Shown here: in pieces, positions 1 through 32,887 of the stretch
How the letters are laid out: every line of letters starts with the position of its first letter
Numbering within the stretch: position 1 is the first letter of the stretch
Assembly (NCBI GenBank): GCA_045536365.1
Contig: JAZSNL010000016.1
Coordinates: forward strand, 46,003-110,002
DNA from: Bacilli bacterium
Lineage (GTDB): Bacteria; Bacillota_I; Bacilli_A; ML615J-28; CAG-313
Direction: 5' to 3'
DNA length: 64,000 bases
The notes under the pieces: generated by a model
What the model saw: only the letters and a program-made list of their open reading frames with translations
Databases searched by the model: none
What the model was told of the DNA's origin: nothing
Position numbers and translations under genes: made by a program

Positions 1-3000
1 AACAGTAATACCGTTTAACATGCTTACTCTTGAGAATACTTTTTCTACTAATTCTTGTTCATGTCCTTCGATAATTGCAAGACCGAATGCAGCTTCAACA
101 AGTGATGCAATTGCATATTCATCGTTTGCATTCTTATTATCAAGTTTTCCATATACGCTACCAGCACCGAAATAATCTAATGCGATAATGTCAGAAATCA
201 TTGATACACCAACTTTATAATCAGCTACAAAGTCAGCATCTGTGTAATTAGCATCTGATAATAAGTCTTTAAGGATTTGGAATCTTCCGCCAAGAACTTT
301 ATTATATAATCTAATTGCAAGAGTTCTACCTAAAGTTTCTAATAAGTATGAATCTTCTAATTCAGCTAATGCTTTTTGAGCATAACCTAAGAATTCATTA
401 TTCTTTAATGTAGATAAATCATCTAATTTAACACCGCTAACATTTAATGCATATTTTAATTGAGATAAGAATGCATTACCTAAAGCAGCTTCGTGGTTCC
501 AGTTAATATTAGCTAATTTAGCTTCTAATTCTGGAGTAGACACGTTAAGTTTTCTTACTAAGTAAGTAACTACTGAAGTCAAGTTATCTTTAGAAAGTTC
601 AGATGTAACTAAGAAGTCTACAATACCCATTAATGGATCTGTATTCTTATAGCTTAATTTGCCTTCTAATAAGCCTAATTCAGCAGCATATTCGATTAAT
701 TCATAAACTTCAGGAAGATATTCATTAATTAATTTTTCATTGAATTCTTCAGTAGTTAAAGTTTCAAATAATTCGAATCCAGGAAGTGCAGTAGCTAACA
801 TACGAGCTGCGCCACGTGCAACTGGTAATAATAATTGTCCTAATACAGCTTGATCAGCAACTTGACTTACTAATGAAGTGAAGTCAGCTTGGAATTGATC
901 TGTATTAATAACTGTTAAGTTAGTTCTAGATAATTGTGGAACATATGTCTTAGCGAAGCCATAAGCAGCTTTTGCAAGAGCATATAAACTCTTAACTGTT
1001 TGTTTAGAGCTGATTCCTTCGTAATTTAATTCAAATTCACCAACTGCGTAAACACGGTTAATTGTCTTATCTAAGTATTCGTATAATTTAGCAGGTAAGT
1101 TAGTATTGTTCTTTAATACAGTAGAAAGTAATGTTAAACCATTAGCAGCATCTAAGTTGATAACAGCGTTAGCACCATTTCCGAAGAAGCCCATATTAAC
1201 GAATGCTTTTGCGATATTAGATAAATCAGCTAAGAATTCAACAGCTTTAGCTCTATCAGCATTTACTAATGGAGAATCTGCGTCAACTTTAGCAGCTAAA
1301 GGACCAACAAATTCACTTACTAACCAGTAACCAGCTTCTTCAGCTAATGTAGTTGTAACGAATGCATCATATAATCTAATTGTAGCTTCAACAACAGCTT
1401 CATTTCCTAAAATACCTAATGTACCTAAGTTACCTTTAACATCTAAGAATACTTCATTGAATAATGTTACGAATGCATCTGCATGAGCAGCGTATGCATA
1501 ACCATCAGCATCCCAGTTAACATTAGATAAATCTAATGATGTTAAATCTAAGCCTAAGTAAGAAGAGATGAATTCAACAGCATCTTGTGCTTTATCATCA
1601 ATAATATTTAATCCAAAGAAATCAATAATGATTTCAGCGATATAACTTTCTGCAGCAGCTGTTAATTCAGTACCTGTGCAGTATGCTTGGTAAGCATTAG
1701 AATCGAATAAGTTACGAGCGATTGCAGCAACACTATCTAAGTCTTCTGCTAATTCAGCATTAGTATAAGTACTTAAATCTAATAAGATTAATGCGTTACC
1801 TGATAATGATTTAGTTAATTCACGATAGATTGGTAATGCAACAACATCAACTAATTCAGATGCAGCTAAAGCTTCAAAGAATTCAACTGTTGTTTCATAA
1901 TTATCACGCATGAATAATCTATAAGCTTCTTTAACTAATTCAACTTTACCTAAGTCTTTTAAGCCTTTTAAGTAATAATAAGTTTCTCTAGCTTCATGTA
2001 AACCGTAAGTATTAGCAATTGTTAATGCAGCTTCTAACATACCAGAAACAGCATCTAATTCATTTGCCCAATCGATACTTCTTAATTCATATGCGCTAAT
2101 AGATACACCTAATTTACCACAAGCAGCTTCAACAACTTCAGCATGTTTACCTTGTGCTAAATGTAAATTCCATACAGTTTCTAATGCAAGGATTGCTTTT
2201 TCAACATTTTCAATTGAAATGTTCTTACCATCTCTTACATGTTGTCCTTCATTATACATGAAGTCTAATGTTGCTTGTGCAGCAACTAATAAACTATCGT
2301 AGTCTTCTGCTAATGCTTCAGTGCTTAATCCATTAGGAGCTAAGAAACGAGCACCAGGAATAGAACTATTAGAAAGTTTTTCTAATACGATAGGTAATGC
2401 TTCTGCTAATAATTGAGAACCGCTTAATTCTTGTAAACCTTCAACAGTTTGAGAACCTAATACATAATCAGATACTAAACGTTTCCAATTGAATGTTGAC
2501 ATTGAGAATGCGCGTAATTTAGCAATTGTATCTAAATCTAATTCATTAGCAACAACTGCTAATTTTTCATAAGCAGGAATAAAGTAGTTATTAGCTTCAT
2601 TTACTAAGTCAATATTACTATAATCGATATCTAGAATAGGTTTAGCTAATCTATTAGCAATTTCAGTTTGATATTGTGCAAAGTATTGAGTATTAACAAC
2701 TAATGAGATAACATTAGCGATTTCACTTCTAGTGTAATCAATAACGTAATTTTCTGTACCGTTTAAGTAATCAGAAATAATTGCAGGAGCTCCAAGTGAA
2801 TCTAATTCAGCAAGAACTTCTACTAATGTATCGAAATCAGCAAGTAATGATTCTTGATCTGCGTAGAAACTTAAATCAAATGCTTTAGAAGCTTTGCCAT
2901 CTAATAATGGAGCAACTACTAGATTATATAAATCATAAGCGTTATTTCTTAATACATCTAAGTTAACTAAGTTAGCAACTAATTCTTGAACTAAATCATA

Positions 3001-6000
3001 ATCAGCTTCATCAGCTAATAATTCTAATACAGCATCAAGGTTAACTTTGCTACTTAATTCTTGTAATGTTTGAACATCTAATGCTTCAAGAACATCAAAT
3101 AATTGAGGGATGATAACATCTCTTAAAGCTTTTAAGCTTCTGTCTAATTCAGCAGCAGTGAAATTAGAACCTTCAAAATTGAATTGGCCAAGAGTGAAAC
3201 CATTTACGAAGTCTCTTAATACTAATTCGCCTAAAGCTTCAAATTTACCAAAGAACATATTAGTGTTCATTACTAATTCTAATGCTTCAAGTAATTTAGC
3301 TTCAAGAACATCTAAATCAGCAGATTGAATATTTAATACACCAGAATCTCTAACTGCGATTGCAGCATTGAATAATGCATCAAAGTCTTCTACTAATTGT
3401 TCTTGAGATAAGTCAGCAATTAATAATTCATAATACTCAGGAAGAGCTTTTTCAGCTACAGGAAGTAATACAACTAATACTAAGAAACCAGTTTGTTCAT
3501 AGATAGTAGTATCCATGTAAGCACGAAGAATATCTTTAAGAGTTTCAATAACAGCATCTTTAGTAAATAATGCAGGGTTAAGTTTTGCAGTTGAGAAGTC
3601 CTCAAATGTATGATAAGGGAATTCATCTTGTGCAATAATGTGAGTTGCTGAGTGGTAAATATCACCTAATTTAGCTGCATCACCAGCGAAATCTAATGCG
3701 TTACCATCTACTAATTCAGCAAATCCTAAAGCTTCAACTAATGCAGCACCTCTGCCTACACCATTGAAGTATCTCATACCGAAGATTTCATTTAAGATTG
3801 TCTTAACTGCATGAATTTCAAACCATGGGATTTCAATTTGGTTTTCAAATACAGCTTCAAGATCTAATGAAATTAATACTTCAAGTGCATTTTGAATTCT
3901 AGTGATATCTTCGCCCATAACAGCGTATTTACCATAGATTTCATTTACGCCAGCAAGTGCATATAAATTAGCAGGCATATATTTATCTAAAAGAGGGAAT
4001 AAGATTTCAGATAATAATTTATCATTCTTAGCGTATTCTAATACATTGATAATATGACGTAATTGTTCTTCTTGGTGAGTGAAGTAAACAGATACATCTT
4101 TATAATTAACTTTCTTAATATCGTTAACTGTTTCTAAGTTCCAGTTTCTAGCGAATCCTTGAACTTCATTGATTAAACCAGAAATTGCAGCAACTTCTTC
4201 ATCCATTGTTACATCTGATAAATCAAATAAACCAGTAACTTCAATTCCTTCTAATAAAGCTTCTACAACTTTACCGAAGTTATCTTCAGCTAATACATGA
4301 GTATCAGCTAAGTATTCTAATGCTTCTACAACAGCGTCAAGTTCAGCGAATTGTAAATCAAATTCAGCAGGTACTTGTGCATAATGTAAAGCATTTGTAT
4401 CAACTAATAATACTTCAACGGCGTTAAGTACTTTAACAACGTCAGAAGCTAATTCTTCATTAGTAAATTGACCTTTGAAGAATGTTAAGTTAAAGCCTTT
4501 TTCAGAAGCAAGTTCTAGGCCTTTTTCAAGTAATGGATTTAATCCTAATTGAACTAATTCAAGTTTAACTAATGCTTCAACTACATCTAATGCTTCAATT
4601 AATGATTCAACAGTGTAGAATTGAATATTAGCATAATCTTTATTAACGATGAAGCTTGCGATTTCATCGTAACCGTTTAAGTTAGCTTCAAATAAGAATT
4701 CAGAAGCAGCAGTAATAACTTCTTGGAATAATGCATTTTCAGAAGTGAAATTAATGTGTTCTAATTCAGCAGCGCTAACAGTTAAATCTAATTTAGCAGC
4801 TTTAGCTACTTCATTGATTGCTAATGCGATCCAATCAGTTTCAACTAATGTTAATAATTGGATTTCTTGTAATAATTCGATTGCATTATTTACATAATTG
4901 AAATCAAAGTCATCAACAACAACGTTTTCTAAAATTTCTTTTAATCCAAATGCAACTAATTCATCAAAGATATTTTCGATTACATCTAAGTCAGCTTTTA
5001 ATACTGCTGCATTATATTCACCATCATAAGGTTTTGCAGAAGAACCATTATCAGCTAAAGCAGATAAGAATGAAATATCTAATCCTTTAGAAGATGCTAA
5101 TTCTATAGCATATTCTAATCCCCAACCAAGTGCAGGGTTAGCTAATTGTAAATCTAATACATGATCTACAATTTCAAATGCATGTTTAACATTTGCAAAT
5201 TCGTTTCTTGTCCAGAATTTAGTTTTTGCATATTCTTTAGAATTAATAAATCCAAAGATTGTAGCTAGACCATCAATACCATTTTCACTTAAGAATTGAC
5301 CTAATTCTGTAACAATAACTTGTAATTGTGCGTTTTCTTGACTCCAGTTAATTCCTTCTAATGCAGCTGCATTGAATTCATATGGAAGTTTAGAAGCCAC
5401 TAATTCTAATACGACATTTGCCCATTCACCAGCGAATTTATTTAATGCGTTGATTTCATCAACTTTTGCAATAATTTCATTGATACCAGCAAAATCAAAG
5501 TGTTCAATATCATTTGTATTGATATATTCATATAAACCGCAAGTACGTAATTGTCTTACGATTACTAATACAGTTTCAACATCTTGTACTAATTCTTCTT
5601 GAGATAATTCTCTTAAGAATTTAACATCTAATCCTTTAGACATGCCAGTTCCAGCATAAACAGCTAATTCATAGAATTCATGTAATGCTTCCATGTTAGA
5701 AACAGCTGTAAGGATATCGATTAAGTTGTCAACACATTCTTCATTATAGATATTTAAATCTAAGAAATCTTTATTTGTAAAGAAAGCAATTAATGAAGAT
5801 AATTGAGTTAATCCAAAGTCTTCAACAATAGTATCTAATTCAGAAACGATAGCGTATAATTGAGCAAATTCGTTTTCGATACTAACATTTTCAAAGTCTT
5901 TTTCATCATATCCGAATTGGTAACCTAATTCTAATTTATCAACTAAAATGTTACCAGCATATGCGAATAAGTCTTGAGCATTATCATAAACGATATTTAA

Positions 6001-9000
6001 TTCATATAAGTTACCAATAATATTTGCTGCATAATCTAAATCTAAATCAGCAATATCTTTAGTGAAGATGTATTCTAATGCACCTAAATCAACAGCGTTG
6101 ATTAAGATTTCAACTAGAGTATGAGCATCTTCTAATAATTTTTCTCTGTTGTATTCATATTCGAAATATTCTTCCATAAATACAGCAGGGTAACCCATTG
6201 CATCTAACTTAGCAAAGCCAAGAGCTAATGCGTATGGTAATAAGCTTTCAGTTAATTGTAATTCAAGAACACTTTCAACGATTTCAGCAACTTTATTAAC
6301 GTTAGCTTTATCATTTTCAGTCCAGAAATCAGCATCTTTATATTCATCGCCCTTGAAGAATTCTACAGCACCAGGATAAGAATTTGCTTCGTTTGCTGTT
6401 AAGAATGCACCAAGTTGTTTAACGATATCAACGATAGATTCTTTTTCTTGAGCCCAATCAAATGCGAAATCATCAGCCTCAACAGTTACATTTAATTTAA
6501 CTTTTTCAGCTAATTTGTTTAATCCGAATGCTGTTAATTCAGCTTCGTTGCCATTAATAATATTTAATGCAAGAACTTTATCAACGATAGTTGCTAATAA
6601 GTCTGTATCAATATTATTTAATTCTTTGTTTTTAATAAATTCTAATGCACCTAATGCTACTGCATCTTTAGCAATAGAAGTAATAGCTCTAACATCTTCA
6701 AGAAGTTCTTCACCAGTGTAAGCTAAGAAATCAACATTCATATTTGCATTGTCTGCGATGTCTTTTAAGAATACAACTGCTTCAGGAGCAAGAGATGCTA
6801 AAATTTGTGAATCAGCTAACATAGCTACTGCATCTAATGCATTATAAGCAACATCTTTATATGCAATATAGAATGCAAGATCAGTATAGTTACCAGTTTC
6901 GATAAATGTCATAACATCAGATAAACTGCTTAATTTTGCAGCATCTAATACTTTTTGTAATTGAAGAACAACATTTTGTAACATTGCCATTTCTTCAACA
7001 TAATTAATAGCTTCAGCTTCATCTAAAGTAACAACGAATTCGTTATCGAAATTGATTAAGCTTAATGCATAATTAACACCAAATTCTACTAATTCAGGTT
7101 CAATATCAGCAACTAAGTGTAATTGTTGTACTAATCCTAAAATGTTAGCAGCAGGAGCTAATGAAATTTCTTGAATATCTTTAGTAAAGATATATTCAAT
7201 TGCACCTAATTCAACTGCTTCTAAAGCGATATCTACGATTGTATTTAAATCTTCTGCTAAGCTTTCAGCAGTATATTCAACTTCAAGATAGTATCTTAAG
7301 AATGCAAGTGGTAAGCCAGTTTTGTCAATATATGGACGAATCATATCAGCTGCAACAGGCCATAAAACGCCGATAGTTTGAAGTTGAGTTGCAGGTCTTA
7401 ATACTCTTGCAATACCAGCAACTAATTCATCTGTCCATGATGAATATTCTTTATAAGTGTCTTCAAGGACGAAATTAATAACATCCTTTAAGTATCTAGC
7501 ATTTAATGCTTTAACTAAATCTTCAGATTCTCTAACAATTGATGCTAATAATGCGAATTCTTGTTCGAAGTCAACAGCTTTTATATCATCTAATGTAATA
7601 GTAAAGTCAAGTTTTGCAATGCCGCCAACATAGTTAAGAGCTTCAACATATAATTCATCAATACATTTACTTACTAAATTCAAATCATATAATCTTTCGA
7701 TTGCAGTTGCAACGATATTTAATGATTCAGCATTTAATACTAATTCTGTATTAACTTGATTTTCATAAATTTCAACTAAATCAAGTGGTAATACTAAATC
7801 AATAATTTGAGATAAAGTTAATAAGTCAGCTTGGAAATCTTCAGCTGCCAATTCTCTGAATGCTTTACTACTAATTTCAAATGTGCCTTTTTCATTAGTT
7901 GTTGTAACGATTGGATCTGGAATTAATGGAAGAATTGCTACAACTGCATTACCAACTAATTTAGAACCAGATAATACTGCTAATAAATCAGCTGCGATTG
8001 CGATGTTTTCATTCTTAATTAAAGCACCATCTAAGTATAATTTCTTATCAATAAATAATCTTACATCTTCAACAGTTAAGATATTATTTTCTTCTAAGAA
8101 ATCAGCTAACAATGGGAATAAACCTTGAATTGTTTCAGATTCTTTAGACCAATCTTCGATTGTTTCTAAAGCGAAATCTTCAACTTTAATCTTATCTTGT
8201 TTAGCTAATACGCTTGTTAAGATAGAACTAATTAAATTACTTTCGTAACCTTTTAATAAATTTAATTCAAATACTTTTGCAACGATTTGTTGTAATGCAG
8301 CAACTTTTTCATCACCGAAGTTTAAGTCACCTGTCCAATCGTTTGTTAAATAAGTAAGAATTTCAGTTTCATCAGTTACTAATTGAACGATACTTAATAA
8401 ACTTCTTACATCTTCTGCAAGTTGTTCACCAGTTAATTCAGCTTCTTTCCAGAATGTTAAATCAAAATTATTTTCAAATTTATTTAATAATACTGGGAAT
8501 GCTAATTCAAGAATAACTTCTAAAGTATCTAATTGTGTTAAGTTAGATAATACTGCAATGATTTCTCTTGCATTTTCTACATTTGCGAAATCAGCTTCTA
8601 AATAAGCTTTTTCTTTAATGAATCTATTGAAATCACTAACACTAATTAATCCATTAGCGTCTAATAAATCGCTAATTCCATGTAAAACTACTTTTAATTT
8701 ATCGCCTTCAGCTTTAAAATCGATTCCAGCTAAATCATCTAAAGTAATTTCAACATCAATGTTTTGTTTAGCTAATGTTTCTTTTAAGAAATTGTCATAT
8801 ACCCAAACAATAACTTCTGCGCCTTTACCATCAAACATTGTTACGTCTTTTAACGCATCAATAATGTTGTCGATAATAGCGTTGTCTAATTGTAATGCAC
8901 CATTAGACATAAATTCTTGTGCATTTAATTCGATAGCTTGATCAGCAACATAAACTAATGTTCTGATATCGCTTAATAAGTCTGCACCTGACATATTACT

Positions 9001-12000
9001 AATATCTAAAATATCAACGATACCTTGGAATTGATCAGGAATCATATTCTTTTCTACTACTAGTTTTTCATATAAATCAGGTAATAATAATTCTACTAAT
9101 TTAGAATAAGTTAAATAATTTGTACCTTCTGCTTCATATTGACCAACAATAACTTGTAAAGCATTTACTAAAATTCTGCTGTTTACTTGGTTAGTTAAAT
9201 ATTCTAAGTCAATATTGAATTGGTTTTCATTAAAGAACTTGTAATCATTTAAGATAGGTCTTAATGTTTCGATTGCTTCTAAGATTAATAATCTTTCTTC
9301 AGCAAAATTAATGCCGTCGAAGTAACCTTTTTCAACATCCATAACTTTAAGAACTTTTAATACGATACGTAATACTTGACCTTCATGACCTTCAAATAAA
9401 ACGTTACCTAATAAAACATCAACAATATTTAAGATTCTATCAACTTCATTTAATTTTAAAGTTTCAAGTGGAGCTTTATCGAATGCTACATCAAATACAC
9501 CAATGTACTTAGCATCTTTAACTACAGATAAGATTTCTTGTAAAGCTACTAAGATTTCTTGAGAAGTAACTTCTTCAAGAACGCCTGCTAATGCGCCTTC
9601 ATCTTCGATTGATTTTTCAATTAAAGGTAATACTTTAGTTTGAATAACATCTGGTAAGATTGCAAGAACAATATCAGATTCAATTAATTCATCAATTGCG
9701 TTAATAGCAATATCATAGAATGCATCGTTATTTAATAACTTGTTAACTTCAAATTTGAAATTATTAATATCAACGCCTTCTAATTTAACTAATTCTTTAT
9801 ATTGATCTAAAATTGCTTGTAAAACTTTAATTTCATTTTCCCATTCAACTTCTGAGAAATCTGGAGTTGCAGAAACAATATCAAATTTAACTAATGCTGC
9901 TGTTAATAGACCTTCTTTAGCATTATCATCACCAAGAATATTTAATGTTAATACAGTTTCAATCGCAGCTTTAAGAGTATCAATTGCTTTGTCACTTGTT
10001 AAATCCATTGAAGAAATTTGAAGTGATAAAACATTTAATTCATTTAAGTCTTTAGCTAATTCTAAAATATCTTCAATATCTTCTGTCCATTGTTCATTAG
10101 ATAAATTAGTTAGTTTAATATATCCATTGAATTCTGGTAAGCCATTAGTTTTAAATGTTTGATTTAATACACCATCTAAAACAGGAGCAACAACAACAGG
10201 AATTAAAGAAGAATCAAAAATAGTTGTTAAAGTATCTTTAGCAGTAACAAATTTATCATTATCTTCTAAGATATCAGTAACTAATTCCATACCACCTTTG
10301 AAATCATCTAAACTATCAAAGCCTAATAATTTAAACATATCATAAGCTTCAACTAAATTTAGTAAATCTTCTTTCCAAGCAATAGCATCAGTATTAATTT
10401 CAAAACTTAAGTTACCTGTTAATTTCTTAACAGCTTCTAAGTTAACAGCTACACATGTGCCAATGTTTAATACTAATTCAAAACTTTCCGCTTCAAATAA
10501 TTTTTCAACAACTTCTTTTAATACTTCAGTGTTAAGATCGAATAAATCAATCATTTGTTCTGCTTCAGGATCAAATAATTTTGATGCAGCTTTTAATACT
10601 TCAGTATATGCATCCATTTCTTGTTCCCAATCAACATCCATTAAAGCATTAAAGTTATCTGTTTGACCAGCAGCTTCTAACATTGTATGTAATGATTCAT
10701 TACCTGTTGCATAATTAAATGCAATTGGGATAAGTAATTGATCAAACAAATCTAAGTTAGCAACTTTAACTAGCATTTGAGCAACAGTTTCAAGTTTTTC
10801 TTCATTTCTTAATACTTCTCTGAAGAATTCATTTCCATTAAATCCGTTAAGAGTTTCAATACCTAAGTCTTGGAATGTATCATAGATACCAACTAATTTA
10901 ACTAAATCATTTTTCCAATTGATTCCAGTTAAATCTGGGTTTTTATCCATTGTTCCAATTAAATTTTCAACGGCTTCAATTCTTAATGCAGTATTAACAA
11001 GAACAGGTAATAAGTTATTGATTAATTCAGTATCACCTAAATGTTCAACAACATTAACTAATACATCTGGATTCATTGTTAAGTAATTAAATTCACTTGA
11101 GAAGATATCTAACTTATAAACTTCTTTAACTGCATCAAGGATAAGTTCAATATCTTGATCCCAGTTAATATAACGAAGTTCTAAGAAATCACCTTGTTGA
11201 TTTGCTTTTGTAAGTAAATCTTTTAAGCCAAGTTTTAACATTTCTTCATCTTCATAAAGGAATTCAACTGCAACAGGCATTAATTCAGGTAATAATTGAG
11301 AGTATTTTAATTCATCTAAAGCATTATTAACTTCTGCTTGAGACCATTTAAATAAATCTTCTTTTGCAAATTTACCTTCTAATGCGTTAACTGCATAAAC
11401 GAATGTGATTAATTCTTCACGAACCGGAATTCTTTGAGTTTCAGTTTCAATTACTAATAACGAATCAAAAGTAATTGTACTAAATGAATCACCAAAGAAA
11501 TATGCTGAACCTTCAACTACTTTACCAATACCACTTTCATAGTATGAGTCAACGAAGCCAAATAATAAATCAGCAACTGATTCACCTTCTTCAGATACGT
11601 TTGCTTTATCGCCATCAATCATTTCAGCGATCGCATCTCTTGTCTCAGGAGATGCTTCAGCAAGAACTGAGCAAATTCCAGCGATAGGTGCAAATAAAAT
11701 AATAATTACTGCTAAACCTTTTAACACACCGATAACTGCGCCCCATACATTAGAGCGATATTTCCATGGTTTTGGTGCATCATTAGCGGCAACAGAAACT
11801 ACTACGTCATCCATTCCTAAATCGCTTTCTGATACTACTACAGTTTCTTCAGCTGTTGAATCTTTTTGTTCTTCTGATTCTTCAGCTACTTCTTCTGTAG
11901 CATTTGCAGCTTTCTTTTTCTTAACAGCTCTAACAATTAACCATACAATATGAGTAATTAGGCGAATAATAGGAGTTACTAAGAATGTAACGACTGTGAT

Positions 12001-12381
12001 GGCCATTAATCCTACTCCTCTTACTAAGCCAGAAACCACATTGTAGAATAGGTCATAAGTAGCTTTGCCTTCAATTAATAAACTTTCACCATTAGGAATC
12101 ATTTCTTGTCCTAAAAGAACAACAACATCCCAAATAGTTTTACAGTTTGAGGCATCGCCTTGAACCATACCCTTAAGAAGTTCTACAGCGGCTCCTTTAG
12201 AGTTTAGTAAAGTAGCTGCATCACCGAATATTAGCCATGCAAGAATTAGCATTACTAATATTACAGCTGTCCACGTAAGTTCTCTTCTAGCTTTTGCGAA
12301 GAAGCCCCATACAGCGAACAAGATTACCATTAATAAGCATCCCAAACCTACTAATAGTAAAGCTGAGCTAATAAAATCCAT
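1..12381 (-). CDS. Giant membrane-anchored repeat protein, 5' portion only (start codon at 12379..12381; frame stays open to position 1, so at least 4,127 codons lie in the window and the stop is beyond the left edge). CvpA-like N-terminal membrane domain followed by a long acidic helical repeat region.
   Basis: ATG at 12379-12381 preceded by AAGAGGTG. The hand-translated N-terminus MDFISSALLLVGLGCLLMVILFAVWGFFAKARRELTW has a GF..RE..TW pattern like the first CvpA TM hairpin. The ORF track reports no minus-strand ORF in this frame between 1 and 12381, which can only happen if there is no in-frame stop. Hand translation at 11131-11172 (YINWDQDIELILDA), 10903-10950 (MDKNPDLTGINWKNDL) and 1-60 (EQELVEKVFSRVSMLNGITV) gives clean coding sequence. 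The small plus-strand ORFs in this region are antisense shadows. Confidence 0.85.
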   Translation of the reverse strand, partial: MDFISSALLLVGLGCLLMVILFAVWGFFAKARRELTWTAVILVMLILAWLIFGDAATLLNSKGAAVELLKGMVQGDASNCKTIWDVVVLLGQEMIPNGESLLIEGKATYDLFYNVVSGLVRGVGLMAITVVTFLVTPIIRLITHIVWLIVRAVKKKKAANATEEVAEESEEQKDSTAEETVVVSESDLGMDDVVVSVAANDAPKPWKYRSNVWGAVIGVLKGLAVIIILFAPIAGICSVLAEASPETRDAIAEMIDGDKANVSEEGESVADLLFGFVDSYYESGIGKVVEGSAYFFGDSFSTITFDSLLVIETETQRIPVREELITFVYAVNALEGKFAKEDLFKWSQAEVNNALDELKYSQLLPELMPVAVEFLYEDEEMLKLGLKDLLTKANQQGDFLELRYINWDQDIELILDAVKEVYKLDIFSSEFNYLTMNPDVLVNVVEHLGDTELINNLLPVLVNTALRIEAVENLIGTMDKNPDLTGINWKNDLVKLVGIYDTFQDLGIETLNGFNGNEFFREVLRNEEKLETVAQMLVKVANLDLFDQLLIPIAFNYATGNESLHTMLEAAGQTDNFNALMDVDWEQEMDAYTEVLKAASKLFDPEAEQMIDLFDLNTEVLKEVVEKLFEAESFELVLNIGTCVAVNLEAVKKLTGNLSFEINTDAIAWKEDLLNLVEAYDMFKLLGFDSLDDFKGGMELVTDILEDNDKFVTAKDTLTTIFDSSLIPVVVAPVLDGVLNQTFKTNGLPEFNGYIKLTNLSNEQWTEDIEDILELAKDLNELNVLSLQISSMDLTSDKAIDTLKAAIETVLTLNILGDDNAKEGLLTAALVKFDIVSATPDFSEVEWENEIKVLQAILDQYKELVKLEGVDINNFKFEVNKLLNNDAFYDIAINAIDELIESDIVLAILPDVIQTKVLPLIEKSIEDEGALAGVLEEVTSQEILVALQEILSVVKDAKYIGVFDVAFDKAPLETLKLNEVDRILNIVDVLLGNVLFEGHEGQVLRIVLKVLKVMDVEKGYFDGINFAEERLLILEAIETLRPILNDYKFFNENQFNIDLEYLTNQVNSRILVNALQVIVGQYEAEGTNYLTYSKLVELLLPDLYEKLVVEKNMIPDQFQGIVDILDISNMSGADLLSDIRTLVYVADQAIELNAQEFMSNGALQLDNAIIDNIIDALKDVTMFDGKGAEVIVWVYDNFLKETLAKQNIDVEITLDDLAGIDFKAEGDKLKVVLHGISDLLDANGLISVSDFNRFIKEKAYLEADFANVENAREIIAVLSNLTQLDTLEVILELAFPVLLNKFENNFDLTFWKEAELTGEQLAEDVRSLLSIVQLVTDETEILTYLTNDWTGDLNFGDEKVAALQQIVAKVFELNLLKGYESNLISSILTSVLAKQDKIKVEDFALETIEDWSKESETIQGLFPLLADFLEENNILTVEDVRLFIDKKLYLDGALIKNENIAIAADLLAVLSGSKLVGNAVVAILPLIPDPIVTTTNEKGTFEISSKAFRELAAEDFQADLLTLSQIIDLVLPLDLVEIYENQVNTELVLNAESLNIVATAIERLYDLNLVSKCIDELYVEALNYVGGIAKLDFTITLDDIKAVDFEQEFALLASIVRESEDLVKALNARYLKDVINFVLEDTYKEYSSWTDELVAGIARVLRPATQLQTIGVLWPVAADMIRPYIDKTGLPLAFLRYYLEVEYTAESLAEDLNTIVDIALEAVELGAIEYIFTKDIQEISLAPAANILGLVQQLHLVADIEPELVEFGVNYALSLINFDNEFVVTLDEAEAINYVEEMAMLQNVVLQLQKVLDAAKLSSLSDVMTFIETGNYTDLAFYIAYKDVAYNALDAVAMLADSQILASLAPEAVVFLKDIADNANMNVDFLAYTGEELLEDVRAITSIAKDAVALGALEFIKNKELNNIDTDLLATIVDKVLALNIINGNEAELTAFGLNKLAEKVKLNVTVEADDFAFDWAQEKESIVDIVKQLGAFLTANEANSYPGAVEFFKGDEYKDADFWTENDKANVNKVAEIVESVLELQLTESLLPYALALGFAKLDAMGYPAVFMEEYFEYEYNREKLLEDAHTLVEILINAVDLGALEYIFTKDIADLDLDYAANIIGNLYELNIVYDNAQDLFAYAGNILVDKLELGYQFGYDEKDFENVSIENEFAQLYAIVSELDTIVEDFGLTQLSSLIAFFTNKDFLDLNIYNEECVDNLIDILTAVSNMEALHEFYELAVYAGTGMSKGLDVKFLRELSQEELVQDVETVLVIVRQLRTCGLYEYINTNDIEHFDFAGINEIIAKVDEINALNKFAGEWANVVLELVASKLPYEFNAAALEGINWSQENAQLQVIVTELGQFLSENGIDGLATIFGFINSKEYAKTKFWTRNEFANVKHAFEIVDHVLDLQLANPALGWGLEYAIELASSKGLDISFLSALADNGSSAKPYDGEYNAAVLKADLDVIENIFDELVAFGLKEILENVVVDDFDFNYVNNAIELLQEIQLLTLVETDWIALAINEVAKAAKLDLTVSAAELEHINFTSENALFQEVITAASEFLFEANLNGYDEIASFIVNKDYANIQFYTVESLIEALDVVEALVKLELVQLGLNPLLEKGLELASEKGFNLTFFKGQFTNEELASDVVKVLNAVEVLLVDTNALHYAQVPAEFDLQFAELDAVVEALEYLADTHVLAEDNFGKVVEALLEGIEVTGLFDLSDVTMDEEVAAISGLINEVQGFARNWNLETVNDIKKVNYKDVSVYFTHQEEQLRHIINVLEYAKNDKLLSEILFPLLDKYMPANLYALAGVNEIYGKYAVMGEDITRIQNALEVLISLDLEAVFENQIEIPWFEIHAVKTILNEIFGMRYFNGVGRGAALVEALGFAELVDGNALDFAGDAAKLGDIYHSATHIIAQDEFPYHTFEDFSTAKLNPALFTKDAVIETLKDILRAYMDTTIYEQTGFLVLVVLLPVAEKALPEYYELLIADLSQEQLVEDFDALFNAAIAVRDSGVLNIQSADLDVLEAKLLEALELVMNTNMFFGKFEALGELVLRDFVNGFTLGQFNFEGSNFTAAELDRSLKALRDVIIPQLFDVLEALDVQTLQELSSKVNLDAVLELLADEADYDLVQELVANLVNLDVLRNNAYDLYNLVVAPLLDGKASKAFDLSFYADQESLLADFDTLVEVLAELDSLGAPAIISDYLNGTENYVIDYTRSEIANVISLVVNTQYFAQYQTEIANRLAKPILDIDYSNIDLVNEANNYFIPAYEKLAVVANELDLDTIAKLRAFSMSTFNWKRLVSDYVLGSQTVEGLQELSGSQLLAEALPIVLEKLSNSSIPGARFLAPNGLSTEALAEDYDSLLVAAQATLDFMYNEGQHVRDGKNISIENVEKAILALETVWNLHLAQGKHAEVVEAACGKLGVSISAYELRSIDWANELDAVSGMLEAALTIANTYGLHEARETYYYLKGLKDLGKVELVKEAYRLFMRDNYETTVEFFEALAASELVDVVALPIYRELTKSLSGNALILLDLSTYTNAELAEDLDSVAAIARNLFDSNAYQAYCTGTELTAAAESYIAEIIIDFFGLNIIDDKAQDAVEFISSYLGLDLTSLDLSNVNWDADGYAYAAHADAFVTLFNEVFLDVKGNLGTLGILGNEAVVEATIRLYDAFVTTTLAEEAGYWLVSEFVGPLAAKVDADSPLVNADRAKAVEFLADLSNIAKAFVNMGFFGNGANAVINLDAANGLTLLSTVLKNNTNLPAKLYEYLDKTINRVYAVGEFELNYEGISSKQTVKSLYALAKAAYGFAKTYVPQLSRTNLTVINTDQFQADFTSLVSQVADQAVLGQLLLPVARGAARMLATALPGFELFETLTTEEFNEKLINEYLPEVYELIEYAAELGLLEGKLSYKNTDPLMGIVDFLVTSELSKDNLTSVVTYLVRKLNVSTPELEAKLANINWNHEAALGNAFLSQLKYALNVSGVKLDDLSTLKNNEFLGYAQKALAELEDSYLLETLGRTLAIRLYNKVLGGRFQILKDLLSDANYTDADFVADYKVGVSMISDIIALDYFGAGSVYGKLDNKNANDEYAIASLVEAAFGLAIIEGHEQELVEKVFSRVSMLNGITV

Positions 12382-12416
12382 AATTTCACCTCTTTTATTT
12401 ATGACTTTACTCACTT

Positions 12417-12445
12417 ATTTTACCAAATTATTAAAAATTTTGCAA
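12417..12445 (-). promoter_or_regulatory. Candidate sigma-A promoter for the giant gene: TTGCAA, 17 nt spacer, TGGTAAAAT (extended -10)
   Basis: On the minus strand: ttgcaa (12440-12445), a 17-nt spacer, then tggtaaaat (-10 at 12417-12422 with TG extension). It lies about 35 nt upstream of the ATG at 12381. Confidence 0.35.
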
Positions 12446-12552
12446 GTGATTACTTATATTTTTCAGCAATTTTGATACCATTTTTTTACATTTGTTTTCT
12501 TCTTCTTTAAAACAATAATTTAAAATAAGCTAAAAAATAGGAAATTTTCAAT

Positions 12553-12599
12553 AAGATAAAAAAATAAAAAAGACTTATGCAATTATATGCATAAGTCTT
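12553..12599 (-). terminator. Rho-independent terminator downstream of the 1,041-aa paralog, separating it from the giant gene
   Basis: 12-bp perfect stem aagacttatgca / tgcataagtctt (12570-12581 and 12588-12599) with a 6-nt loop. On the minus strand it is followed by a T-rich tract (complement of 12553-12569). Confidence 0.6.
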
Positions 12600-12614
12600 T
12601 AAAAATATTCCTTT

Positions 12615-15600
12615 TTAAGCTAATCCTAACATCTCTAAAATAGATTTTGCAAGCGCAGATTCTTCAACTCTTTCTTTCAATTCAGTATTAGTTTCCAAGT
12701 TAAAATTATCTGGATCTGCATGATAAATTTCAAATACATCTTCTAAAATTACTGCTTCTTCCTCGAAATTTGCTTCACTTAAATCTATTTCACTACCTAA
12801 ATATTCAGAAGCAACTTCATTAATAACATCCTTTGCAAGTTCATTATTTTCAAGATTTTTCAATTCATCAACCAACTTTTGAACTGTTTCTTCTTCTGTC
12901 ATAGTTTCAGTTGTTAAATTAGTCATTGAATTAGCTAAATCAATTAAACCACCAATATTATCAGCTTGTTCATTTAACACATTTGGATCAGTAAAATCAT
13001 ATTTATATGTTCCGTCATCATTCTTAGGAAGTTTATCATATCCATTAACACCAAGAGTTTCAACTAAAACCGTTCCTAATACTTTACTTGCAATAACGCT
13101 TCCGCTAGCTTCTTTCATTATCGCGCTAACATCAGATCCTTTAATAGAAGATAAATCTTCTGCACCTAATAAGCTTTCACTTGCAATATCATAAACATTT
13201 AATGTTCTATTAATTTCGTTAGTCCAACCATTTGTTTTAATCAATTCTTTTTCAGCAGAATTAAATGTTAAATCAAATGATAAACTATCATCAATATTAG
13301 AAACTAATGTTCCGATTAAATCAAATATAATAGGCTCAAATATTTGAGATTCATTAAAGGCATCTAATACTTTACCTATTTGATTAATTGTTTCTTGATC
13401 TCTTTGACCTGTTTCAGGATCAACTTCTAATATTGTTGTAAAATCTAATGAGCTTAAATCTCCACCACATAAATTAGAAATTTCGATGATTACATTTGCT
13501 AATTTACCAGGTTCTGTTTCCCAATCAACATTTTCAATTTCAAGTGTAATTCCATATTCTTCTAACATTGAATTCAATTCAAACGTATCAATCAAGAAGT
13601 TCATTAATTCAGTTTCATTACCTTTAATTAATCCAATATCAAATATTCTTTCTAATAGGTTTTTAATAGCTTCAGGATTATTTAAATCAATATTTCCCTC
13701 TTCACCAAACAGAATATTTAAATCCTTTAATCCATAAATGATTTCTACAATATTAATCATTTCTGCTTTAAATTCTTCAGAAGTTGTATTTTTTAAAGCT
13801 TCAAAATTTAATATTCCTTGAAGCCCTTCAGGGATTACACTATCTTCTTTTCCTGCTTGTGAGTTATATAAACTTTCTAATAATAATACGCCAGCTTTTC
13901 TAAATAAATCTGATTCAGCTACTTTACTAACGATATCTAGAGTAAGATCTTTATTATCTATAAAGTATTCAAATGAAATATTTTCCGCATTAATAACAGG
14001 AATTACTGAAAGAATAATATCAGCGATTTTTTCCGGTTCAGTTTCCCAGTTAATTTGTAAGTCATCCATTACATTTTCAGGGACATATTCTTTAATTGCT
14101 TCAACGCTTAATAGTGTTTTGATTAGCCCTTCTTCATGTCCATCAATAACAGTTAAATTGAAAATATTTATTATACTTTCCTTAATTAAAACTTCTTCAT
14201 CTTCACTAATAGGATCTAGTTTTTGGCTAGTTCCGTTTATTAATTCTTTACCTACTCCATATATTTTTTGAACTGTATCAACTAACAACACACTATCGTC
14301 TTTTAAAATTTTAAGAAGGTTTTCTTCTGTTATTAATTCTTCTAAATATTGAGTATCAATTTTATCAATTTTAGCTACTAATTCAGACAGTTTTTCCACT
14401 GCAAAAGGTACACCTATCTTATTAATAATTTGTAATTTTAATAATGAATTAACAATATTACCAAAAGAATCTTTTAGTTTAGGGTCTTCAACAATACTTA
14501 ACGGATCATTGATATCTATTTTTAAATCAACTGCTGCTACTGCAACTTCTTGAATAACATCTATTAACGTATCCATTTCTTTATTAATATCTATTTCCTT
14601 AATGCCAGATAAATTAATTTCAACCCCTTCAAAGTCTCCATTATCAACCGCATAACATAAATATTCAAATCCAACAGGTAAAATTATTTTTACTGATTGA
14701 ATATTTTTTAATACATCACATATTTTAGTAACATCTTCTTCTGATACACCCGCAAAATCAAACATCACTTTTTCTTCAGTAACTTCTATTTTAGAAGTTA
14801 TAACTGGTATAATTTGTCTTAAATTAGCATATTCTTCTACAAAATCTAATTTACCGTGTTCTGTTTTAACTGTTAATAGGCTACCAATATATTTAGCATC
14901 TAAAGTTAAATCATTCTTTTTATCTCTTGTGATATTAAATATTTTTCTTGTAATACAAGAATCAAATTGATTATTAAATTCAGTAAATAATTCTTCTGTT
15001 GTTGAATTTGTTAAATCTTTATTAGGGGATTTTAAAAGCATTTCTAATAAGCTATTTAATCCACTCGTATCAGAACTAACAGTCACTTCTTCTGAATTTT
15101 CTGTGTTTTCAATAATTCCATATGTTTGTTCAAAATCATCAATTGCAAGTTTAGTAATTGATAATGTACCGAAAATTGGAATTAAAAACACAATAAAGAA
15201 AACTGCAAATTCTAAGAATCCCATCCCCATTCCTAATAAACGAGAAAATAATGTTTTTCTTTTCTTTACTTTCTTCCCTATTTTTTCATCAACTACTTTG
15301 TCATCAAAAATTAACATATTGAAAAAAGCGAGTATTAATCTTAGTATTGGTCCTATAATAGCAAATATTAAAATTGTACCTACTGTATAAATTACAAATT
15401 TTAAAATTCCTACAGCTACGCTTTCCGCAAAGACTAATAATTCACTATTTGGTACATCTACACTGCCGTTTGTATAAATGTTTTCTTGAATCAATGTCAC
15501 CGCATAGTCTTTAACTGAAGTGAATCCTTCAATAATATTGTATTTACTTATGTCTGTTTCTAATATTTTTACCGCGATACTGCCTAAAAAGATTGCGAGT

Positions 15601-17106: not shown

Positions 17107-17135
17107 ATGTAATGTCGGAAAGTAAGGCGATGAAT

Positions 17136-18257
17136 ATGAAGTACAGAATCGAGAAAGATATTCTCGGAGAGAAGAAAATGCCAAGTGAAGTATATTATGG
17201 CATATATACTCTACGAGGCAAAGAAAATTTTCAAATCACTAAACGCGGTATATGTAGACAATTAATCAAATCAGTAACTATTGTTAAAAAAGCAGCAGCT
17301 AAAGCAAATTATGAAGCCGGTGCATTAGAAGAAAAAGTTGCTGATTCAATCATTTTAGCTTGTGATGAAATATTAAATGGAAGACTTCACGGACAATTTG
17401 TAACTGATTTAATTCAAGGTGGTGCTGGTGAAAGCATTAATATGAATGCAAATGAAGTTATTGCGAATAGAGCTAATGAAATGTTAGGTGGAGAAAAAGG
17501 AAAATATGAATTTGTTGATCCTATTAAACACGTTAACTACGGACAAGCTACTAATGATGTTATTCCTACTGCAGGTAAAATAGCAGTAATTAAACAATTA
17601 AAAAAATTAATTGTTGAATTAAAAAAATTAGAAAATTCTTTTAAAACTAAATCCAAAGAATTTGGGTTTACAAAAACAAGCGAAGAATTCGCTGCTATCG
17701 CAACATTATTATCAAGAGACATTAAACGTATCGAAGGATCTATTAATGATTTATCAGAAATAAACTTAGGCATTAATGCTTTAAAACAAAATACTCGTGG
17801 AGCTGATAAATATTTTAAAAAGATTATTATATATATTAATAAATACTCTGGAGAAACTTTAAGACATAGTAAAAACTTACTTGATTCTACTAGAAGTCTA
17901 GATAGTTTCTTATGGGCAAGCAGTTGTTTGAAAACTCTAGCTGTTGGATTATCAAAAGCCGCTAATGATATTAATATTTTATCTGATCCAGAACATCGTG
18001 AAATTGTCTTACCTATTGTTCAGATCGATAGCAGTAATAAAGAATATAATCCTGTTATAATTGAAATGGTTAACCAAGTAGCATTTTATGTTATGGGATT
18101 AGACGTTACTGTTACAAAAGCTATTGAAGCAGGACAATTATCAAATAATATCTTTTTACCAATTATCTTAACTTCTTTATTTGAATCTATTTCTGTTTTG
18201 AGAAGAGCTTCTAGAACTTTAAGAGAATTAGTAATCGATGACACTAAATTAGCATAA
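17136..18257 (+). CDS. Aspartase/fumarase class II family protein, divergent: degenerate SS loop and no C-terminal domain
   Basis: MKYRIEKDILGE matches the FumC/AspA N-terminus (MEYRIERDTMGE). GGAGESINMNANEVIANRA corresponds to the conserved TGSGTQSNMNVNEVIANRA and NYGQATNDVIP to SQSSNDTFP. The signature GSSIMPGKVNPTQCE is replaced by DSSNKEYNPVIIE. The protein is about 373 aa versus about 460 for FumC. Confidence 0.7.
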   Translation: MKYRIEKDILGEKKMPSEVYYGIYTLRGKENFQITKRGICRQLIKSVTIVKKAAAKANYEAGALEEKVADSIILACDEILNGRLHGQFVTDLIQGGAGESINMNANEVIANRANEMLGGEKGKYEFVDPIKHVNYGQATNDVIPTAGKIAVIKQLKKLIVELKKLENSFKTKSKEFGFTKTSEEFAAIATLLSRDIKRIEGSINDLSEINLGINALKQNTRGADKYFKKIIIYINKYSGETLRHSKNLLDSTRSLDSFLWASSCLKTLAVGLSKAANDINILSDPEHREIVLPIVQIDSSNKEYNPVIIEMVNQVAFYVMGLDVTVTKAIEAGQLSNNIFLPIILTSLFESISVLRRASRTLRELVIDDTKLA

Positions 18258-18283: not shown

Positions 18284-19732
18284 TTATTTTAATCCAGCTT
18301 TTGATCTTGTCCATTGCTTATACCAAATTCCCCATTCTTTTAAATGTTCATCTGAGAAATCTGTTAATGTATCATCACTATGTTTAATAATTGAAGCAGA
18401 ACCTGCACTATTAGAAATGTTCCACGCAACATAACTAATATTTCTTTGGTCTAATATTTTATACCAGTTTTGAATTGATGAATAGTTCATCGCTCCATCA
18501 CCTGATGATTCCATACCGCCGTGTTCACTTATAAATACAGGGAATCCTTTATCATAAGCATTTGAAACTTGATATGTATTTTTATGTCCTGCCGCATAGA
18601 AATGATATGTATACATAATATTTTCATATCCTACTAAAGGATCTGCCATTACCGCATTTAAATTAGCTGTCCAGTTTGGATTTCCAACTAGAATAATTCC
18701 ATCTGTGTTTTCTCTAATTTTAGGGATTACTAATTCTGCATATGTTTTACATTGTTTCCATGTAGTTGAACCGTTTGGTTCATTCATAATTTCATATAAA
18801 ACATTATCATAATCTTTAAATTCTTTACTTATTCTACTAAAGAAGTCCATTGCTTCATCTTTATAGTACAAAGGGTTTTTATCATTTGCATCTTCAGCAC
18901 CTACCATGTGCCAGTCAATGATAACGTATAATCCCGCTTCTGTTGCGTATTTAACACCTTGAACTACTAAATTATATAGTCTTTCTTTATTAGCTTCACT
19001 TGTACAATATCCATCTTCTGAAGTATACATTGCAAGTCGAATAACATTTATACCAAATGTATTTTTCAAACTTGAGATTGTTCCTTTGTTAACATATCTA
19101 CTAAACCATTGTAATCCATGTGTACTTAAGCCAATAAGTTGGAATTTTTCACCATTTTTATCAACTAAGTCTGGACCACTTACACTTATTTTACCATGAG
19201 TAAAATAGTCATTTGATAATTTAATAGGAGTTGGAGCTTCATCGTATTTTGCAATGATAGTCATATCTGAATCAAGAACGATAAATTCTTTTGAGTATGA
19301 TGAACCATTTATTCTCCATGAAGAAAAAGCGTATTCTTCAATTGGCAAAATGTAATCTTCTAATCTTAGTTCTGTCCATGGTAAAACTTCGTATTGTTCT
19401 TCAAACATGTCATTATAGTTAATTGTTAGTATAACTGTTCTTTGTTTTTCAAATTCAGCTACTAGCGTTAAATCTTTTGTGACACTAATTTGTGATGTAA
19501 ATAAATTACCTTGTTCATCTTTCCACCCTACAAAGTTGTGTAATTCTTTTTCAGCTTTTGGTAATGAAGATGCTTCTAATATTTGATCTTTTTCTAACTC
19601 AATTGTTTGAAATAATTCTCCATCTACTAATAAATTTACTTTATAGATTTTAGGTCCTTTATCTTTACAACCTATCATAAATAAAGAAATAATTAAAACA
19701 GAAATTATTGTTATAATTGTCTTACGCTTCAT
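18284..19732 (-). CDS. Lipoprotein glycoside hydrolase family 5 endoglucanase (cellulase) with N-terminal Listeria-Bacteroides-type (Flg_new) repeats, copy 1
   Basis: Signal peptide plus lipobox LFMIGC. GH5 catalytic motifs are present: LIGLSTHGLQWF, IMNEPNG (acid/base Glu) and FISEHGG (nucleophile Glu). The N-terminal region carries FVGWKDEQGNLF-type repeats. Confidence 0.8.
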   Translation of the reverse strand: MKRKTIITIISVLIISLFMIGCKDKGPKIYKVNLLVDGELFQTIELEKDQILEASSLPKAEKELHNFVGWKDEQGNLFTSQISVTKDLTLVAEFEKQRTVILTINYNDMFEEQYEVLPWTELRLEDYILPIEEYAFSSWRINGSSYSKEFIVLDSDMTIIAKYDEAPTPIKLSNDYFTHGKISVSGPDLVDKNGEKFQLIGLSTHGLQWFSRYVNKGTISSLKNTFGINVIRLAMYTSEDGYCTSEANKERLYNLVVQGVKYATEAGLYVIIDWHMVGAEDANDKNPLYYKDEAMDFFSRISKEFKDYDNVLYEIMNEPNGSTTWKQCKTYAELVIPKIRENTDGIILVGNPNWTANLNAVMADPLVGYENIMYTYHFYAAGHKNTYQVSNAYDKGFPVFISEHGGMESSGDGAMNYSSIQNWYKILDQRNISYVAWNISNSAGSASIIKHSDDTLTDFSDEHLKEWGIWYKQWTRSKAGLK

Positions 19733-19910
19733 TTGTCTTACCCTTTCTTAATAAATATGTTCCTAGTAAAAATATACCAGCACTTGAATAACTTGTTATT
19801 AATAAAATATATTTCATAAAATCTTTTTTAATTAAAATCATACATACTATTAATGATATAAAAAGTAATATTGAAAAAACTGTTAATAGATAACCTAATA
19901 TTTTATTCAT
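19722..19910 (-). CDS. Small two-TM membrane protein (62 aa), hypothetical
   Basis: Hydrophobic ORF that overlaps the neighbouring genes by a few nt on each side, consistent with translational coupling. Confidence 0.35.
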   Translation of the reverse strand: MNKILGYLLTVFSILLFISLIVCMILIKKDFMKYILLITSYSSAGIFLLGTYLLRKGKTNEA

Positions 19911-23486: not shown

Positions 23487-23511
23487 ACATTCCTCCTTTT
23501 TATAAAAAAAA

Positions 23512-23529
23512 TATGCTTTTAAAAGCATA
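23512..23529 (-). terminator. Hairpin after the tRNA pair
   Basis: Perfect palindrome tatgctttt / aaaagcata, followed on the minus strand by a T-run (complement of 23497-23511). Confidence 0.4.
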
Positions 23530-30927: not shown

Positions 30928-32025
30928 CTAATTAGAACTTGGTAATGGTTTTGAAACAAGGTTCATACGTTTTTCTAATAAACCAAGTAGTTTTGATATA
31001 CCTAAAGTTAAGCATAAATAAATTATTGCTGCGATAAAATAAGCATCTCCTGTTCCACCTTTACCATTTATCATACCTACTACATAGAATAAGTCGATTA
31101 CTGATACTACATTTAATACAGATGTATCTTTTATATTAATAATAAATTCATTACAAATAGCAGGTAAAGAATTTTTAATTCCTTGAGGTAAAATAACATG
31201 AGTCATTGCTTGAGTTCTTGTCATACCTAAACTTCTAGCCGCTTCCATTTGTCCTTTATTTAAAGATTCAATACCGCCTCGTAATACTTCTACTAAGTAT
31301 GCGGTAGTATTTAGACTTACTGTTATTAAACCTACTCTTGTTGCGGATAAGATTTCATTAACTGTTTGTTGATTTACTCCAAAGAAATTTACTATTATAA
31401 GAGGTAAAAAGTAATAAATTATTATTGCTTGTACCATCATTGGTGTACCTCTAAAAATAGTTACATATATTTTTACAAATCCTATCGCTATTTTTTTAAG
31501 GAATGCGGTAAATTCATTATCTTTTGGAGTAATTTCTTGTGTTCTAAATACTATAAACATTAAAGCAAGAATTAACCCAATTGCTGTACCAGCTAAACTT
31601 ATCCATATTGTTGTCCAAACACCCATTAATATCATTGGGTATTTATTTATACATATATATGCTAGTCTATAATGCAATGCTAATGCACTAATTTCTTCTA
31701 ATGTTGAATTTGCTGCAATTATAAATGTTCTTACTATTCCTAGTATTAAACAATCAATTACGACTAAAAGAAATATTACTATTGTTATTAAATATAGAAT
31801 TCTTTTAATTTTTTGATTTTTAAACACACATAAAATTAATATTTCTGCTATTAATAGAAGAATAGAAACTATTGTTAATATTAATCCAAGTGTGTTATTA
31901 AATATTCTAATTCCTCGAAGTGATGTATTAAAATAGATATATAATCCATATATACTAGTTATTAAAGTAAATAGTATATATAAACAATTTTCATATTTTC
32001 CTTTTTTATTAAAAAAATTAATCAT
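30928..32025 (-). CDS. Amino acid ABC transporter permease (HisM/GlnP family) with an extra ~130-aa N-terminal hydrophobic extension
   Basis: The C-terminal ~220 aa show the permease EAA-loop region ([21 protein letters not shown]). The N-terminal extension is made of TM segments. Confidence 0.8.
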
Positions 32026-32837: not shown

Positions 32838-32861
32838 ATTTTTCTCCTTTTCTAAAATGAA

Positions 32862-32887
32862 AAAAAGCGTCATTATGACGCTTTTTT
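32862..32887 (-). terminator. Attenuator/terminator hairpin immediately upstream of the ABC transporter RBS
   Basis: aaaaaagcgtca...tgacgctttttt inverted repeat with T-runs. It sits between a ~190-nt leader and the RBS at 32843-32849. Confidence 0.55.

Follow-up and report, generated by a model that had tools for sequence, protein, structure and literature searches.

Giant surface proteins built from helical repeats are a known kind of protein, and the family described here is an undescribed variant that overturns nothing. Ebh possesses an N-terminal export signal and a C-terminal membrane segment or wall anchor. The giant matrix-binding proteins Ebh and Embp of staphylococci are made of F and FG repeats and are described as surface proteins in which each repeat consists of two alpha-helical bundles (PMC7587433). 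Apilactobacillus kunkeei, a small-genome, host-associated member of Bacilli, encodes the extracellular proteins Giant1-5, of 3,000-8,000 amino acids (aa), in adjacent genes (PMC12863079), and the talin rod, spectrin-type repeats and designed helical-bundle repeats also rank among the closest known systems. Parallels for the membrane-bound end are CvpA, the Colicin V production protein (PF02674), and the mycobacterial MarP, in which four N-terminal membrane helices precede a protease responsible for activating RipA, a peptidoglycan hydrolase (PMC12183614). The present analysis concerns a stretch of 64,000 nucleotides (nt) from a Bacilli bacterium (assembly GCA_045536365.1, contig JAZSNL010000016.1, positions 46,003 to 110,002), referred to as the window, in which a giant gene on the minus strand encodes a long array of repeats behind a CvpA-like membrane domain and lies next to the gene for a smaller paralogue.

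The giant resembles Ebh and Embp in being a putative surface protein of megadalton scale from Bacilli, in possessing dozens of diverged repeats, and in having a pair of helical sub-modules as its repeat. It differs in that neither the protein encoded in the window nor its full-length database counterpart, P0004, matches FIVAR or GA in Pfam, in that its modules are 85 and 102 aa long with four main helices each, and in that its anchor is an N-terminal CvpA-like four-helix domain, at the opposite end from the anchor of Ebh. As in A. kunkeei, the large putative surface proteins are encoded by adjacent genes in a small-genome, host-associated member of Bacilli; Giant1-4, however, possess N-terminal beta-solenoid binding domains, a type not detected in the present protein, and their anchor and repeat family are not those of the giant. 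The giant shares with CvpA and MarP an N-terminal four-pass domain, a GF-x-x-G-x-(K/R) motif after helix 1 and a variable extension past helix 4, but CvpA is ~160 aa long and MarP carries a protease, whereas the extension here consists of helical repeats over ~4,600 aa. Searches of the literature on RF39, Acholeplasmatales or CvpA in connection with giant proteins did not turn up an account of this family.

The minus-strand frame is uninterrupted from position 12414 to position 1, an open stretch of 12.4 kb that continues past the window edge, and the likely start of the giant gene is the ATG at 12381, ahead of which lies the ribosome-binding site AAAGAGGTG. P0004 is 4,861 aa long and is 99.2% identical to the giant, gap-free, over all 4,127 aa encoded in the window, so that ~734 C-terminal residues of the giant lie beyond the window edge. 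Full-length copies of 4,861 aa are present in 11 of the 14 members of the P0004 90% cluster, indicating that the gene is real and maintained. A pseudogene or an assembly artefact is ruled out by the 12.4-kb open frame and by full-length, near-identical copies on many independent contigs. The array is strongly acidic, with an isoelectric point of 4.14. No Pfam family was matched at E≤0.1 in the 4,127 aa of the window or at E≤0.05 in full-length P0004, neither the giant nor the small paralogue had a Pfam or NCBIfam family or carried a source-given name, and no enzymatic or binding domain was detected along the full-length giant.

A preliminary description of the window had proposed, from the sequence by eye, that the giant proteins contain a recurrent tryptophan motif marking a repeat of 85-95 aa. 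Recurrence of the motif is borne out: the strict form [IVL][ND]W..[DE] is found 7 times where 0.19 would be expected, a count reached by 0 of 5,000 shuffles, and 17 of the 28 tryptophans after the anchor are followed by D or E at +3 (shuffle mean 4.7; 0 of 5,000 shuffles reach 17). The spacing is periodic and not random, with tryptophans at aa 407, 489, 585, 669, 765 and 847 lying 82, 96, 84, 96 and 82 aa apart. The first four (nt 11163, 10917, 10629 and 10377) belong to an N-terminal run of single modules spanning aa 330-759, and both peptides that had been quoted from the giant fall within this run. LTGINWKNDL is present at aa 484-493 (nt 10903-10932, minus strand); YINWDQDIELILDA is likewise present, at aa 405-418, although it lies on the minus strand at nt 11128-11169 and not at the 11131-11172 given earlier. 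Both peptides quoted from the smaller paralogue were found in its open reading frame (ORF). The tryptophan is not, on the other hand, a conserved residue of the motif, being kept in only 37% of B modules and 8% of A modules as defined below. This poor conservation, the strand, the pairing of modules and the membrane anchor were all absent from the preliminary description, each part of whose repeat interpretation is otherwise supported.

Comparison of the giant with itself reveals a longer period. Protein autocorrelation is highest at lags of 178-189 aa and at twice these lags, with lesser maxima at 93 and 96, and a BLAST comparison of 200-aa chunks of the giant yielded 71 off-diagonal matches with E down to 4e-18. 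The self-comparison is periodic, but the offsets of all the matches are multiples of 178-197 aa and none is near 90. An iterated hidden Markov model (HMM) recovered 23 domains over aa 328-4119, with a spacing of ~90-100 aa at the N-terminus that widens to ~185 aa from aa 760 on. Separate models of two module types, A and B, alternate strictly along the giant 16 times and give weak cross-matches on each other's modules. The unit that is actually duplicated is therefore the 187-aa A-B pair. The 85-95 aa repeat proposed earlier survives as the module, of 85 or 102 aa, whereas the copied unit that is visible to BLAST and in autocorrelation is the pair of ~187 aa.

Column statistics were drawn from 256 units pooled from the giant in the window and 18 homologues, and spacing statistics from 242 units in 19 proteins. 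Measured start to start, A modules are 85.3±4.3 aa and B modules are 102.0±5.1 aa long. Each unit contains two similar openings, 86 columns apart. The A opening has L in 63%, F in 10% and W in 8% of units at column 6 and D in 91% at column 9; the B opening has W in 37%, F in 20%, Y in 16% and L in 15% at column 92 and E or D in 91% at column 95; and hydrophobic residues follow at +7, +10 and +11 in both. The repeat family is defined on this basis by alternating A and B modules, each opened by an aromatic or hydrophobic residue with D/E at +3 and the three hydrophobic positions just given, and the giant fits the definition with 16 A-B pairs.

Profile comparison supports homology of the A and B modules, and with it a module of ~90 aa at the deepest level. 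When half A was compared with half B of the 256 units using hhalign, 74 colinear columns were aligned with a score of 25.0 (P 3.6e-5). The controls scored 10.9 when the columns were reversed and 10.9±1.7 (maximum 15.8) over 40 block permutations. Alternatively, only the 187-aa unit would be a true repeat, and the halves would resemble each other through convergent amphipathic helix starts and not through an ancient 90-aa duplication. The lack of any BLAST self-offset near 90 aa, the unequal module lengths and the result obtained with only the 16 units of the window (P 0.004, probability 8%) fit such convergence, but the margin of the 256-unit score over its controls, the same order of helices in both halves (long, short, medium, medium), the tryptophan in every N-terminal module and the cross-matching of the A and B models render it quite improbable.

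Beyond the sixteen A-B units the array continues into degenerate modules, in which INWNHE is found at aa 3961, and it runs on past the window, with W-x-x-E motifs in P0004 up to aa 4843. In total, the part of this giant, very acidic protein that the window encodes is made up of some 40 modules that can be recognised. A higher-order period of two units, or 374 aa, is also apparent in the centre of the array (~nt 4500-7600, aa 1600-2600), where autocorrelation reaches z 10.4 at lag 374; the best internal BLAST pair of the giant is offset by 374 at 35% identity.

An AlphaFold2 model of two units (aa 1703-2076), built from an alignment of 7 in-register rows from the same protein, is entirely helical, with a predicted local distance difference test score (pLDDT) of 83.2 and a predicted template modelling score of 0.78, in agreement with the helical-bundle reading proposed earlier. 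Each modelled module is made of four main helices, first a long one, then a short one and then two of medium length. The longest of them start exactly at motif aromatics, namely Y1794 and W1976 (model positions 92 and 274), each directly preceded by D or N. As modelled, the motif is the first turn of the long helix that opens each four-helix module of ~90 aa, with the aromatic position (W/F/Y/L) as the first residue of the helix, D/N just before it and D/E three residues on. The repeat module lies outside described families, with no match in Pfam, NCBIfam or the PDB: Foldseek returned no structure at E≤0.001, and a sequence-profile search of the PDB gave 0 matches at E≤1. Known alpha-solenoid repeats (HEAT, ARM, TPR, Sel1 and ankyrin) were rejected on the Pfam and NCBIfam results and the same PDB profile search, and a heptad coiled coil and a toxin or enzyme tip were each rejected likewise, as none gave a profile match.

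The anchor contains four hydrophobic helices at about aa 6-24, 35-53, 124-150 and 214-241, and loop 3, which joins helices 3 and 4, is rich in lysine (K) and arginine (R) at its ends and acidic in its middle. The giant and the small paralogue align throughout this domain, and the Pfam family Colicin_V matches 12 of 20 aligned homologous anchors, with a best E of 8.9e-8. Across these 20 anchors, the mean number of K+R residues is 2.9 in loop 1 and 3.0 and 4.2 at the two ends of loop 3, against 0.4 at the N-terminus, 0.9 in loop 2 and 1.4 after helix 4, where D+E averages 3.9. All 20 exhibit a positive-inside pattern with loops 1 and 3 inside and the tail after helix 4 outside, and by the positive-inside rule this distribution places the array outside the cell. 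Basic residues of the KPWKYR type precede helix 4, as in a signal-anchor. The predicted topology is thus that of the CvpA type, with four passes and the C-terminus outside. It agrees with a published prediction for CvpA, and in published accounts the extensions that follow CvpA-type anchors at the C-terminus lie outside the membrane.

The array could instead be cytoplasmic, forming a membrane-tethered internal scaffold or a cytoskeleton-like element in bacteria with thin walls or none. No cleavable signal peptide is present, export of ~4,600 acidic residues would be costly, and the protein carries no wall-anchoring motif; the C-terminus of P0004 possesses no hydrophobic segment or membrane helix and no LPXTG. 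The orders concerned are, moreover, predicted to have thin or absent walls (PMC10868615). Set against this, the charge pattern of every one of the 20 anchors puts the segment after helix 4 outside, as do the published placement of CvpA-type extensions and the basic residues ahead of helix 4, and a cytoplasmic array is considered unlikely. We infer that the array is extracellular.

A further alternative is that the repeats form the stalk of a specific adhesin or of a contact-dependent effector carrier, with a functional C-terminal tip outside the window. The last ~600 residues of P0004 (aa 4251-4861) have no counterpart in six complete homologues, as would be expected of a variable tip, and giant Gram-positive surface proteins are commonly adhesins (PMC7587433, PMC12863079). 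Such a tip appears doubtful, given that Pfam detects no domain at E≤0.05 in full-length P0004 or in the C-termini of three homologues, that module starts of the W-x-x-E type continue to within 20 residues of the C-terminus, so that the tail looks like more modules, and that conservation is best near the membrane and not at the tip. The region aa 4251-4861, which retains these helix-start motifs, appears to be a lineage-specific extension.

When compared with the six complete homologues, the giant is 41-47% identical over aa 1-500 but only 19-32% identical in the centre (aa 1501-3500), and around aa 3500-4250 identity is 23-31% and the proteins remain colinear. The best-conserved part is the segment at aa 242-329, adjoining the membrane, which is 39-46% identical to the homologues. 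For the units at aa 760, 938, 1130, 1316 and 2817, the best match in other species is the unit in the corresponding position, whereas the central units (aa 1703-2638) resemble their own neighbours as much as they resemble any unit from another species. The ends of the array are therefore older than the split between these species, and the centre has turned over. Turnover in the centre is consistent with the variation in copy number across the family. The repeats are old and diverged and not tandemly identical, as the preliminary description had stated: units share 11-36% aa identity, and Tandem Repeats Finder detected no 270- or 555-nt array in the DNA but only periods of 6-27 nt in about two to three copies. 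A recent tandem expansion of the contingency-locus type is ruled out, as there are no high-identity head-to-tail DNA copies.

A search of 1.84 billion representative proteins with the unit profile returned only 119 matches at E≤0.001, and the giant occurs solely in a small group of uncultured gut bacteria. Giants of 3,857-6,731 aa, in which 18-31 stretches are matched, account for about 25 of the 119; the largest member, of 6,731 aa, possesses 31, and the remainder are proteins of the small-paralogue class or fragments. A genome scan identified 18 loci in species-level genomes, with giants of 4,052-4,803 aa and 16-21 units. Almost without exception the genomes bear the labels of uncultured Mollicutes, Bacilli, Acholeplasmatales or Anaeroplasma; also among the 18 are 'Staphylococcus sp. 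CAG:324', an uncultured Staphylococcaceae metagenome-assembled genome (MAG) and a 'Prevotella sp.' MAG. The 'Prevotella sp.' contig (L008) shares gene lengths and unit spacing with a contig of an Anaeroplasma bactoclasticum MAG (L009) and is probably mis-binned.

Overall, the giant is best explained as an extracellular, acidic chain of four-helix modules held by a CvpA-type anchor, forming a surface fibre or brush, a reading to which we assign a probability of roughly 0.6. The protein begins with the CvpA-like anchor, followed by a conserved segment of ~90 aa, four single modules, sixteen A-B doubles and degenerate modules. The fourth membrane helix would act as an uncleaved signal-anchor through which the whole array is threaded outside the cell, and there the modules, stacked on one another, would form a long fibre or brush of negative charge that projects from the thin envelope of these gut Bacilli. 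The most conserved part, near the membrane, would carry the conserved function, with the central units serving as a spacer whose copy number varies by species, and the small paralogue, with the same anchor, would probably sit beside the giant protein. The array is probably a surface fibre or spacer, which may serve in adhesion, in support of the envelope or as a barrier.

Several observations weigh against this explanation. The giant of the window gives no Colicin_V match by itself, and the paralogue scores 16.2 bits against a gathering score of 29.3. The array is assigned to the outside of the cell from its anchor's charge bias and by comparison with CvpA and MarP, and no wall-anchoring or ligand-binding domain backs a specific surface role. 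The homology of A and B, although significant, is weak (hhalign probability 71%). Fold searches give only generic helical bundles, and an AlphaFold2 model of aa 330-770 from 3 sequences reached a pLDDT of only 37.6; helices in this low-confidence model begin no more than 3 residues away from the four tryptophans, a weak hint at most.

A more far-reaching version of the proposal, which we regard as improbable and offer as speculation, is that the array constitutes a polyanionic protein brush on the surface, ~100-300 nm in extent and with a net charge of ~-400 per molecule, that takes the place held in other Gram-positive bacteria by teichoic acids, capsules or S-layers. If this were true, the brush could bind cations, space the envelope and exclude phage or bile in a lineage that is losing its wall; it could be assembled by oligomerised CvpA-type anchors shared with the small paralogue, and the poorly understood CvpA domain would serve as a base on which surface structures are built.

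Uncultured Bacilli of the RF39, Acholeplasmatales-like and related groups, which occur commonly in the guts of humans and animals, have small genomes, of which a gene of ~14.6 kb must occupy a sizeable share. Since the gene is intact in 11 of 14 near-identical database sequences and its conservation extends over at least 18 species-level genomes, these bacteria very probably depend on it for something important. Definition of the module, of its A-B pairing and of the CvpA-like anchor provides a usable family model for annotating a wholly unannotated gene, and the giant protein offers a target for studying the surface of these organisms and a further example of the cargo of CvpA-type anchors. 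The features of the locus are listed in Table 1.

Table 1. Features of the giant and small-paralogue genes; nt positions refer to the window and aa positions to the giant protein.
Feature	aa	nt	Strand	Basis or remark
Giant gene	1-4127	12381..1	-	3' end cut by window edge; encodes aa 1-4127 of a ~4,861-aa protein
CvpA-like four-helix membrane anchor	1-241	11659..12381	-	Hydropathy scan; alignment with paralogue and homologues
Conserved membrane-adjoining segment	242-329	11395..11658	-	GDSFSTITFDSL...TQRIPVREELITF; dense invariant columns in alignment
N-terminal run of single modules (four)	330-759	10105..11394	-	HMM domain starts at aa 328, 409, 509, 612
Sixteen A-B double-module units	760-3724	1210..10104	-	174-197 aa each; unit alignment, self-BLAST
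Degenerate C-terminal modules	3725-4127	1..1209	-	Weaker HMM domains at aa 3869-4002 and 4046-4119
Intergenic signal region between small and giant genes		12417..12600	-	Pattern scans
Promoter-like site before giant gene		12445-12417	-	TTGCAA-17-TAAAAT with TG; pattern scan only
Terminator-like hairpin 3' of small gene		12600-12569	-	13-bp stem, then T run; pattern scan only
Small paralogue, 1,041 aa		12615..15740	-	Translation, unit HMM matches, anchor alignment

The small paralogue, as the preliminary description had recognised, is related to the giant, sharing its CvpA-like anchor and possessing three copies of the unit (nt 13263-14753). Its motif tryptophan codons start at nt 14048 (INWETE), 13523 (VDWETE) and 13226 (GWTNE), and homologues of 1,041-1,047 aa fix its start at the ATG at 15740. 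Pattern scanning of the region found 4 terminator-like sites against 0.7 expected, and the arrangement of signals suggests that each gene may have its own promoter, with a terminator between them.

The order murA, small paralogue, giant recurs in related gut and rumen MAGs. The small gene lies directly upstream of the giant in 13 of the 18 loci, and homologues of murA and aspA are found beside them in 16. In two rabbit-gut MAGs (L004 and L006), no small-paralogue ORF of ≥500 aa lies upstream of the giant and none matches the paralogue of the window; the giant gene directly follows the murA homologue in L004 and lies just downstream of it in L006. The window also contains murA, ddl and a Mur ligase gene, which fit the thin-walled state predicted for these orders (PMC10868615).

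An aspartate ammonia-lyase-like ORF at 17112-18257 on the plus strand encodes 381 aa that match positions 2-392 of a 474-position profile. Most aspartate ammonia-lyase homologues beside the giant elsewhere are ~470 aa long, and the copy in the window looks 3'-truncated and abuts a gene for a glycoside hydrolase family 5 (GH5) cellulase. Two paralogous GH5 cellulase genes (18284-19732 and 22041-23528) flank a gene for a HAAS/DUF4097 membrane protein (19910-21934), all three on the minus strand, in an otherwise housekeeping region of a low-GC genome. Further along, a lysine riboswitch (95 bits; 32898-33067, minus strand) lies upstream of an ORF at 32025-32873 and a gene for an ATP-binding cassette transporter permease at 30928-32025, which suggests lysine-regulated uptake. 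Between 36001 and 40000, across ddl, Mur ligase and hydrolase genes, GC content falls to 20-22% and GC skew is positive, unlike in the rest of the window.

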